Positions 382 through 2,995 of a DNA stretch of 64,000 bases are shown piece after piece. Below the pieces are notes generated by a model that did not search any database, had not been told where the DNA came from, and worked only from the letters and a program-made list of their open reading frames with translations. Position numbers and translations under genes: made by a program. This DNA is from Eledone cirrhosa. Taxonomy: Eukaryota. Location: positions 42,594,001 to 42,658,000 of the forward strand of contig OZ024742.1 of assembly GCA_964016885.1 (NCBI GenBank), in the 5' to 3' direction. The first letter of the stretch is position 1, and the number at the start of each line of letters is the position of its first letter.

Positions 382-1494
382 CAGGAGGACATGATATGAA
401 GGCTAAAAAACACTTGTGGATAGTGCAGTTTTAAATCAACATATCAACATATCAACATATATATATATATATATATATATATATATATATATATATATAT
501 ATATATATATATATATATACACACACGCACAAACACACACACATATATATATAAGAGAGAAAAGGTGAAATTGGAAATAGCACGGAAAATATATTTAAGG
601 GTCTGTTTTTCTTTTTTTTTCCTTTCTTTGATTCGTCACGTTGACATTTTTGAAAAAATGAGAGGAACAATTCTTTTAAAAAAGAGTTTTATAATGTATA
701 TAAAATATAATCGGTTTTGATGCATTAGTAAAATTCATTGAGTATGACAATTAAAAAAGAATTAATAATAATTTAGAATTAAGTGTTGAGCAAAGTTTTT
801 CTCATCTTCCTTCTTGAGGAGACTGGAAAAATGAACTCTGGTGTATAGAGAGAGAGGTATAGTCAGGGCGGTAGCAGCAGCAGTGGTGGTGGTTGTGTTT
901 TTTCACACAGAACAAAGTTGTTTTTAGGGATAAAGGAGATATTCTGTAAATATGTGTGTGTATCTCAATTGTGTTAAGAGACTGGTCAAGAGTTCAGATG
1001 GGGGTGGGGAAGAGAGGAATTATAAGCTAGAGACAAATTCTATGGGATTGGCAACAGTAGGGTTGTAAAAGAAATTCTATTTTTGGAATATGGCTTTAGA
1101 GAGTGTGAGTGTGTACGTGTGAGAGTGTATATATAAAAATACACACATGCATGTGTGTGTGTGTGTGTATATATATATATATATATATATATATATATAT
1201 ATATATACATATATATATATATATATATATATATATATATATATATATATACAATATAATTAGAAACACACAGATACATGCGGACACACACACATATATA
1301 CATGAATGCATCCGCACCCAACTGTGAGTTAAGGGTGCCAACTTCACCGATGTTGCTCAATGAATGACTGGGACAGACCAATTCAGTTGAACTAGACTGA
1401 ACCAGTATCAGAGTTAAAAATACATTATGAAGAGAGAAGAAACATTTAGATATAATTAGTAATAAAATGTATCATACCTAAACTGCTCCTAAAT

Positions 1495-1584
1495 TCCTCG
1501 ACTACGTAGTTTCGTGGCATAAACAAAAACAATATATCATGAAGATATAGAGTCCTTGCGAGGTCTGCCGACTTATCAAGAGGA
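1495..1584 (-). ncRNA. Hammerhead ribozyme, U3-A8 core variant
   Basis: Reverse complement of 2186-2275. Confidence 0.75.
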
Positions 1585-2185
1585 TACCTCATTTTACTAG
1601 TCTCAAGAACGCGTCTACACGACGTGAGAAAGAATCCCAAAAGGCGGAGGGGGAGATAGTCACGCGATATAACGGTCGAGAAACAGAGCTAAGCCTCTTA
1701 TAACCCCGAAGAAAATACCACGGAGGCGGAGGGGGTATTTATATCGAGGCCGTAGAAGAGGTGGTGAAGAAGGCAAGAAGTATGAGTAATGGAAGCCTTC
1801 CAGCTGTCCCCACACCTCAAAGATTGCTCGACCAGAGGGAGTTATTAACAATATAATTAGAAACACACAGATACATGCGGACACACACACATATATACAT
1901 GAATGCATCCGCACCCAACTGTGAGTTAAGGGTGCCAACTTCACCGATGTTGCTCAATGGGGACAGCTGGAAGGCTTCCATTACTCATACTTCTTGCCTT
2001 CTTCACCACCTCTTCTACGGCCTCGATATAAATACCCCCTCCGCCTCCGTGGTATTTTCTTCGGGGTTATAAGAGGCTTGGCTCTGTTTCTCGACCGTTA
2101 TATCGCGTGACTATCTCCCCCTCCGCCTTTTGGGATTCTTTCTCACGTCGTGTAGACGCGTTCTTGAGACTAGTAAAATGAGGTA

Positions 2186-2275
2186 TCCTCTTGATAAGTC
2201 GGCAGACCTCGCAAGGACTCTATATCTTCATGATATATTGTTTTTGTTTATGCCACGAAACTACGTAGTCGAGGA
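2186..2275 (+). ncRNA. Hammerhead ribozyme, U3-A8 core variant
   Basis: UCCUC-UUGAUAA-GU(C)GGCA...UGCCAC-GAAAC-UACGUA-GUC^GAGGA; predicted cleavage after 2270. Confidence 0.8.
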
Positions 2276-2782
2276 ATTTAGGAGCAGTTTAGGTATGATA
2301 CATTTTATTACTAATTATATCTAAATGTTTCTTCTCTCTTCATAATGTATTTTTAACTCTGATACTGGTTCAGTCTAGTTCAACTGAATTGGTCTGTCCC
2401 AGTCATTCATTGAGCAACATCGGTGAAGTTGGCACCCTTAACTCACAGTTGGGTGCGGATGCATTCATGTATATATGTGTGTGTGTCCGCATGTATCTGT
2501 GTGTTTCTAATTATATTGTTAATAACTCCCTCTGGTCGAGCAATCTTTGAGGTGTGGGGACAGCTGGAAGGCTTCCATTACTCATACTTCTTGCCTTCTT
2601 CACCACCTCTTCTACGGCCTCGATATAAATACCCCCTCCGCCTCCGTGGTATTTTCTTCGGGGTTATAAGAGGCTTGGCTCTGTTTCTCGACCGTTATAT
2701 CGCGTGACTATCTCCCCCTCCGTCTTTTGGGATTCTTTCTCACGTCGTGTAGACGCGTTCTTGAGACTAGTAAAATGAGGTA

Positions 2783-2872
2783 TCCTCTTGATAAGTCGGC
2801 AGACCTCGCAAGGACTCTATATCTTCATGATATATTGTTTTTGTTTATGCCACGAAACTACGTAGTCGAGGA
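2783..2872 (+). ncRNA. Hammerhead ribozyme, U3-A8 core variant (second tandem copy)
   Basis: Same sequence as 2186-2275, 597 nt downstream. Confidence 0.8.
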
Positions 2873-2995
2873 ATTTAGGAGCAGTTTAGGTATGATACAT
2901 TTTATTACTAATTATATCTAAATGTTTCTTCTCTCTTCATAATGTATATATATATATATATATATATATATATATATATACATATATATACATAT

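Follow-up and report, generated by a model that had tools for sequence, protein, structure and literature searches.

A 597-nt unit with a hammerhead motif inserted as a fold-back into (TA)n, probably a non-autonomous Penelope-type retrozyme

The window, the whole 64-kb stretch of DNA analysed here, contains an insert (1251–2947) that is flanked on both sides by (TA)n. It is composed of two arms of a 597-nt unit, which are arranged head to head and point outwards in the sense of the hammerhead motif. Unit positions are given as M1–M597, corresponding to window positions 2271–2867. The features of the insert are the following:

1168–1251: (TA)n target microsatellite, left side
1251–1959, minus strand: left arm, 709 nt or 1.19 units, running from M138 to M597 and on to M249, with the inner end (M138) at 1959 and the outer end (M249) at 1251
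1495–1584, minus strand: type I hammerhead motif of the left arm with a U3-A8 core and a predicted cut at 1500/1499, not followed by a further motif downstream in the arm
1690, minus strand: diagnostic site M407, A in the sense of the left arm, G in both right-arm units (2080 and 2677)
1958–1959: inversion junction, a 2-nt microhomology (TG) common to both inner ends
1958–2947, plus strand: right arm, 990 nt or 1.66 units, running from M285 to M597, through a second M597 and on to M80, with M285 as inner and M80 as outer end
2027–2032, plus strand: TATAAA box, recurring at 2624 (plus) and 1743 (minus), putative promoter element
2186–2275, plus strand: type I hammerhead 1 with a U3-A8 core, predicted cut after 2270
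2271–2867, plus strand: 597-nt unit between the two predicted cut sites, non-coding, with strong folding on the plus strand only
2356–2416, plus strand: start-site motif 1, ACTC…GAGCA (M86–146), 5 nt after the M80 end
2525–2542, plus strand: start-site motif 2, ACTC…GAGCA (M255–272), 5 nt after the M249 end
2723, plus strand: private C>T exchange in the last unit, absent from the listed variants of sequencing run X1
2783–2872, plus strand: type I hammerhead 2, identical to hammerhead 1, predicted cut after 2867
2945–2997: (TA)n target microsatellite, right side, within which a target-site duplication is not readable

As described in the initial annotation, both arms exceed one monomer (1.19 and 1.66 units of 597 nt), the copies are nearly identical, and the arms run into (TA)n at different unit positions. 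The outer ends before (TA)n read ..TTATATTGT (M249, left arm) and ..CATAATGTAT (M80, right arm), with a terminal microhomology of only 1–3 nt. The unit copies of both arms differ by two substitutions only, at 1690 and 2723, and left and right arm are 99.6–99.8% identical. At the centre of the fold-back, an asymmetry of 145 nt is found. The inner end of the right arm (M285) is located 35 nt past the start of the left arm (M249), and the left arm stops 58 nt short of the right-arm start (M80), inside start-site motif 1. The earlier reading of a young retro-insertion of a predicted-hammerhead unit into (TA)n is supported; the insertion resides in an animal, microsatellite-rich genome.

The hammerhead cores of the insert are located at 2191–2270 and 2788–2867 on the plus strand, 597 nt apart, and at 1500–1579 on the minus strand. 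A motif search gave a 5-bp helix I, the core U3-U-G-A-U-A8-A and a fully palindromic helix III; helix II comprises 6 bp with a central bulge and carries a 46-nt structured insert in loop II. The cut-site junctions are exact in all three copies, and the predicted cut sites of the two tandem hammerheads bound exactly 2271–2867, which agrees with the 597-nt monomer proposed before. In the right arm a TATAAA box lies upstream of both predicted hammerheads, so that this copy could itself release a monomer.

Across the 64-kb window, the motif search yielded 15 hammerhead cores, compared with a mean of 0.23 and a maximum of 2 in 30 block shuffles. A covariation search, in which positions 3 and 8 were left free and a palindromic helix III was required, is based on the 18 hammerhead motifs found in all across the window; the 3-8 pair is of Watson-Crick type in 18 out of 18 (13 C-G, 5 U-A). 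Rfam returned no hammerhead match in the window at the gathering threshold and none among 27 matches up to an E-value of 10, and the ribozyme assignment therefore draws on our own motif search in combination with published descriptions. The U3-A8 pair is a natural covariation reported to be active in vitro (PMC3088659) and occurs in hammerhead motifs associated with Penelope elements (PMC4209133). Penelope-type hammerheads are described with a short helix I, a long helix II, a palindromic helix III and opposite-strand pairs 100–700 bp apart, and with poor cleavage in vitro (PMC4209133). The U3-A8 core, the short helix I, the long helix II, the palindromic helix III and the opposite-strand pair are all present in the insert, which supports its assignment to the Penelope class. 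The energy needed to impose the hammerhead fold amounts to 1.1 kcal/mol locally and to 8 kcal/mol for the closed circle, suggesting that the predicted hammerhead would be partly masked in a circle.

The RNA of the unit is predicted to pair strongly with itself on one strand. The folding z-score is -6.57 for the plus strand, with none of 100 shuffles reaching the same stability, and -1.52 for the minus strand, where 7 of 100 did so; the corresponding values for a circular fold are -7.1 and -0.95. The unit has a GC content of 0.42 and no LTR. Pfam gave no match for 11 frames of the element, the longest stop-to-stop frame of which comprises 97 amino acids and does not encode an RT or GIY-YIG domain; none of 90 frames across the window matched GIY-YIG families, no autonomous Penelope-like partner was found within the 64 kb, and no tRNA was detected with ARAGORN. 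A frame of 48 codons that spans the hammerhead (2177–2324, plus strand) begins with an ATG just 5' of it, and the enclosing frame has no Pfam match. Penelope ORFs that start at the ribozyme offer a loose parallel to this frame.

Variants of the unit in run X1 were mapped onto the predicted structure. The comparison covered 20 of the 22 listed variants, 2487 and 2490 being dropped owing to their position in a TG tract to which unrelated microsatellites map. Seven variants are unpaired, nine keep a pair, four break one and none is compensatory; the four pair-breaking variants compare with 7.3 expected (P 0.054, borderline), which is only suggestive of conserved RNA structure among the modelled variants. 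Across the hammerhead core and stems, 44 nt in all, no variant of run X1 is listed; with about 1.6 of 22 expected, this absence is not significant.

One unit (2050–2646) was compared with 4 of 24 listed sequencing runs, among which X1 represents a single run from a single study. The 1904 contigs of X1 reach every one of the 30 bins of the unit. Since several near-fixed sites differ from all copies in the window, this run is taken to be DNA of a relative. Joints going back by 597 nt are present in X1. Six loose ends are listed for this run: two into (AT)n, two in the TG tract and two minor ones. The two into (AT)n, at 2350 (corresponding to M80, 11 contigs) and 2516 (M246, 4 contigs), are among the 10 of 91 loose ends listed for the runs compared. 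The latter is only 3 nt from the M249 end of the window, at a position where the AT run of X1 is longer and a deletion variant of 3 nt occurs. In addition, the depth of X1 drops past 2349 and again past 2509, a pattern expected of copies anchored at these ends; depth is an unreliable guide here and microsatellite matches inflate the second peak, so that the profile was not counted.

Parts of the unit occur in 20 rows of the run search, from 16 studies and 17 coded organisms, and no RNA run holding words of the unit was among those listed. Run X4 contains a single 620-nt contig of depth 8 that closes on itself (590 nt plus an overlap of 30 nt) and carries the main X1 variants, which is equally compatible with tandem DNA and with a circle. 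Run X16 holds four short pieces of the unit at low depth. In run X22 (raw Hi-C, 1938 million letters) only six partial microsatellite matches were found, and another run of the same organism holds a fraction of 0.40 of the unit words. With the unit at low depth or absent in these three further runs, trace DNA is the simpler reading and horizontal transfer is not claimed. Pattern scans with the unit gave no match in metagenome_contigs or viral_contigs; the one match of a second pattern was rejected as a chance 20-nt match without further similarity to the window.

Site M407 distinguishes the two arms. The left arm carries A, as does all X1 depth at this position, and both right-arm units carry G. 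A family allele is thus present in the left arm but missing from the right, and for this reason we consider the fold-back to be real. An origin as an assembly or read chimera, a concern already voiced in the initial annotation, is barely credible. It would be in keeping with the 99.6–99.8% identity of the arms and with the inversion junction having no read support, as no strand-change joint was among those listed for the runs compared, which themselves differ from the window at fixed sites. However, the arms span different parts of the unit, the family allele of the left arm is independent of the right arm, and 14 more fold-backs are found in the window, with arm identities of 86–100%. The two arms probably derive from two template molecules or units. 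This conflicts with one circle serving as template for both; two circles or one mixed multimer fit. A-to-I editing was rejected as the origin of G407, since the 22 listed variants include 9 A/G and 8 C/T transitions, which is no excess.

Both outer ends coincide with a sequence motif. ACTC occurs five times in the unit, but the full ACTC…GAG[CT][AG] motif only twice, each time 5 nt after an arm end. A corresponding arrangement is seen in 8 of 14 other fold-backs, a hand-picked set from the self-comparison of the window judged by a short motif: one arm meets (TA)n 1–7 nt before [AG]CTC…GAG, and the second arm extends 68–95 nt further to the next (TA)n. The remaining six do not display this arrangement. 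The eight with the motif are:

6470–6805, 13777–13985, 28902–29041, 37269–37730, 44760–45100, 45441–45909, 45961–46985 and 54438–54641: short fold-backs, mostly in TA-rich repeats, with a motif end and a tail of 68–95 nt

Four of these carry C3-G8 hammerhead motifs with a palindromic helix III. On the evidence of these motifs, the two ends of the insert are sequence-defined rather than random. Free circular permutation with priming by chance microhomology, as the different arm ends and the short microhomology to nicked (TA)n had suggested in the initial annotation, is not supported, given that both ends lie 5 nt before the only two full motifs of the unit, that the M80 end and, nearly, the M249 end recur in run X1, and that the terminal microhomology amounts to just 1–3 nt. 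The argument for a circle from variable ends is thereby lost. Fixed ends do not refute a circle, however, because Penelope RT starts internally (PMC11167929). The purified Poseidon protein is reported to nick AT-rich DNA, to extend both target strands and to start internally at two sites corresponding to ends found in the genome (PMC11167929). Internal starting takes place at a stem-loop 111–118 nt into the ORF which, with the hammerhead cut at +26, lies about 85–92 nt past the cut (PMC11167929), compared with 80 nt past the cut for one end of the 597-nt insert.

Comparison with metazoan non-LTR retrozymes revealed a non-coding tandem unit, a predicted type I hammerhead at each unit boundary, a GC content of 42%, the lack of an LTR and strong predicted self-pairing of the RNA as common traits. 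Type I hammerhead motifs in at least two consecutive tandem units, which characterize non-LTR retrozymes, are found at 2191–2270 and 2788–2867. The view of the initial annotation that the monomer is long for an animal retrozyme stands only in part: it applies with respect to the unit lengths of about 170–400 nt given for metazoan retrozymes (Cervera & de la Pena 2020, PMC7229834), but not with respect to the range of 51–972 bp for non-LTR retrozymes, with a mean of 650 bp in ray-finned fish (Li, Clavereau & Pollet 2026, bioRxiv 10.64898/2026.07.22.740005), within which 597 nt is ordinary. In contrast to the canonical retrozyme hammerhead of coral and axolotl, which has a C3-G8 pair, a 6-bp helix I and contacts of loop 1 with loop 2, the insert displays U3-A8, a 5-bp helix I and the 46-nt insert in loop II. 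Since mussel retrozymes also lack most of the loop-contact nucleotides (PMC7229834), the non-canonical hammerhead lowers the case for membership but does not exclude it. The head-to-head fold-back, the (TA)n target and the two motif-defined ends are features of the insert that are not described for retrozymes in the available text of PMC7229834 and bioRxiv 10.64898/2026.07.22.740005. Metazoan non-LTR retrozymes have been proposed to be moved by Penelope enzymes.

Partial tandems, an adjacent inverted and 5'-truncated copy and a (TA)n bias are regarded as hallmarks of Penelope-like elements (PMC8557442, PMC3846280). With the endonuclease-positive members (Penelope/Poseidon, Neptune, Naiad) the insert shares the partial tandem together with the inverted 5'-truncated copy, the (TA)n target, two alternative fixed 3' ends and the hammerhead variant, as well as an end that lies about 80 nt beyond the cut. 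It differs from them in lacking an RT or endonuclease ORF, and from Naiads, which have no hammerheads, in carrying them. Moreover, the tail is 30–40 bp in the literature on Penelope-like elements, whereas the ends of the insert are 169 nt apart, each with its own motif, and those of eight other inserts in the window 68–95 nt. The repeats of the window are reminiscent of octopus genomes; if this resemblance holds, the recently active Penelope families listed for Octopus vulgaris (PMC13282606) become relevant.

A further parallel is found in twin priming of L1, in which two target strands prime on the RNA, leaving an inverted piece upstream, the two pieces being separated by a small gap and joined with microhomology. 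The upstream inverted piece, the small gap and the junction microhomology recur in the insert. However, it has neither poly(A) nor a readable target duplication, its arms exceed one unit and its starts are sequence-defined.

The insert appears to work like a non-autonomous Penelope-like element and falls under the tandem-hammerhead definition of a non-LTR retrozyme. In the literature outside subscription journals and repeat databases, no retrozyme unit was found that had been inserted as a fold-back from two starts defined by motifs; the supplements of bioRxiv 10.64898/2026.07.22.740005 may list similar families, and the layout is standard for Penelope elements. As an alternative, the unit might be a SINE belonging to the RTE-type LINE next to it, or a foldback, MITE or satellite at the DNA level with an incidental hammerhead. 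An RT-encoding LINE fragment adjoins the right (TA)n and the long inverted arms resemble terminal inverted repeats, but in the self-comparison the unit is not similar to the LINE or to other repeats of the window, it has no tRNA and no (ATC)n tail, it folds on one strand, and positions 3 and 8 covary in 18 of 18 motifs. This origin is disfavoured and very unlikely. The insert is probably a Penelope-type retrozyme of the non-autonomous kind, for which copying began from both nicked strands of the target at fixed start sites inside the unit, and we regard its class together with the insertion route, by a Penelope-like enzyme acting in trans, as quite likely.

Insertion may be envisaged as follows. 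A tandem copy would be transcribed, its hammerheads would release the 597-nt monomer, and a host ligase could close it into a circle. Bound to the ACTC…GAG hairpins, a Penelope-type RT/GIY-YIG protein would introduce a nick into each strand of (TA)n, each nick priming reverse transcription at one hairpin-defined site (M80 or M249), aided by a few AT bases at most. Each cDNA would then pass intact cut sites for 1.2 and 1.7 units, respectively, and the two truncated cDNAs would join via the 2-nt microhomology to give the fold-back.

Which molecule served as template is less certain than the class of the element. The initial annotation had deduced a template of more than one unit, and this conclusion holds: with 1.2 and 1.7 units, the arms extend across cut sites that are intact, and the template was accordingly longer than one cleaved monomer. 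A more-than-unit model has been proposed already in PMC4209133. For a circle, which comes close to an even chance as the RT template, speak the seamless cut sites in all three copies, G407 in both right-arm units, folding on one strand only, and the inner ends, both of which stop shortly before the start of the partner arm (35 and 58 nt). Circular RNA has been reported for animal retrozymes of coral, mussel and axolotl (PMC7229834); the insert is known here from DNA. Against a circle count the cleavage of only one in nine frog retrozyme dimers (bioRxiv 10.64898/2026.07.22.740005), the weakness of Penelope-type hammerheads, and the twin-priming-like gap, which is 35 nt here and about 0 nt in a second, 318-nt family of the window. 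For Poseidon, moreover, uncleaved RNA is described as the main substrate, without RNA reads starting or ending at the cut (PMC11167929), and Naiads form the same tandems without hammerheads (PMC8557442).

These observations also speak for an uncleaved multimer as the template, a serious candidate that we nevertheless place somewhat below an even chance. Here, element and enzyme would be the same, but a tandem source locus would supply a single linear multimer of at least 2.9 units that stays uncleaved, and twin priming on it would lead to the inversion, so that a circle is not needed; this route as a whole is quite possible, though short of even. The right-arm inner end M285, 35 nt past the left-arm start M249, would be expected from it, and a source array carrying A407, G407 and G407 would explain the allele pattern. 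However, three uncut hammerheads and a source array of at least three units are required, and 5' truncation would presumably shorten the arrays with each generation unless they are regenerated. In addition, the stop of the left arm 58 nt short of the right-arm start, inside motif 1, is not predicted by a linear template (about 1 in 10 by chance).

In a further scheme, a single cDNA folded back and primed itself, and one slip between direct repeats made the rest of the right arm. The entire right arm can indeed be assembled from left-arm sequence with one switch, several fold-backs in the window (36915, 37269, 54438) have centres of 1–5 nt, and self-priming has been argued for Penelope palindromes (PMC3846280). 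With a centre of 145-nt asymmetry, an M80 end that recurs across copies in run X1, and A407 on the left versus G and G on the right, for which one template would need a chance change to the exact family allele (3–5% by our own estimate), self-priming is improbable for the 597-nt insert. Template jumping, known for the RT of R2, is more improbable still. Seamless multimers would arise without a circle if the RT passed from the end of one cleaved linear monomer onto the end of the next; cleavage but no ligation is required, which fits arms that cross the cut site once and twice. Yet all three cut-site junctions are exact, and no indel at 2270/2271 is listed among the 1904 X1 contigs at the 5% level.

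The most specific form of the circle model assumes a 597-nt hammerhead circle with two Penelope start hairpins, which is reverse transcribed in a rolling manner from both nicked (TA)n strands until each cDNA stops short of the start of the other (35 and 58 nt). In this complete form the model is tentative and, on balance, unlikely. If true, it would directly show that circles are the route by which Penelope enzymes move animal retrozymes. It would also account for the tandem-plus-inverted inserts throughout the class, in a genome with many such mini-element families.

The link between retrozymes and Penelope is based on shared ribozymes, co-occurrence and sequence kinship, with the mechanism called unresolved (bioRxiv 10.64898/2026.07.22.740005), and the formation of tandem and inverted Penelope inserts is still regarded as open (PMC8557442). 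The insert is a useful test case for the latter. It is young and shows a Penelope footprint on a retrozyme-type unit, comprising the (TA)n target, the fold-back, motif-defined starts that recur across copies and an allele that separates the arms. A non-coding unit of 597 nt with two defined starts is, moreover, a small substrate with which circle and multimer could be told apart at the level of RNA, genome and in vitro reactions. With at least 15 fold-backs of such kind in the 64-kb window, belonging to several families, such structures may form a large and easily misannotated share of the genome.

The second U3-A8 family, with a 318-nt unit, is located 4 kb from the insert (6823–7566) and likewise lies in (TA)n as two arms that point outwards and comprise about 1.2 and 1.1 units. 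Its junction shows 5-nt microhomology, the inner end of the right arm abuts the start of the left arm, and both strands of the unit fold well (z -7.2 and -6.0). Further inserts of the window carry hammerheads:

1–460, 36844–37257, 45249–45410, 54278–54408, 11460 and 12922: more Penelope-type hammerhead motifs in (TA)n-bounded inserts

Two additional fold-backs, at 31809–32410 and 26597–27264, have arms that are 98.7% and 99.4% alike and contain hammerhead-like words that were not accepted by the motif search. These are a very short U3-A8-like motif near 32210 and an order GAAA…CTGATGA near 27215–27255.

Repeats of other kinds are also present. Two broken RT-encoding LINE copies, which we take to be RTE-like, are found on the minus strand at 2996–5200 and 47770–50870; they are 67% alike and have (ATC)n-type tails. 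The former, which adjoins the right (TA)n of the insert, is interrupted by (AT)n at 5202–5330, and the best protein matches of its frame are about 60% identical. Tandem arrays with units of 107, 39 and 199 nt (33123–33448, 33963–34545 and 62345–62912, respectively) contain no hammerhead core according to the motif searches. Finally, the self-comparison revealed a dispersed family of about 185 nt, probably a SINE, with copies that are 80–99% alike:

9381–9567, 10202–10536, 23055–23241, 34559–34750, 36432–36615, 38346–38528, 55570–55751, 60426–60613 and 61193–61392: copies of the dispersed repeat of about 185 nt
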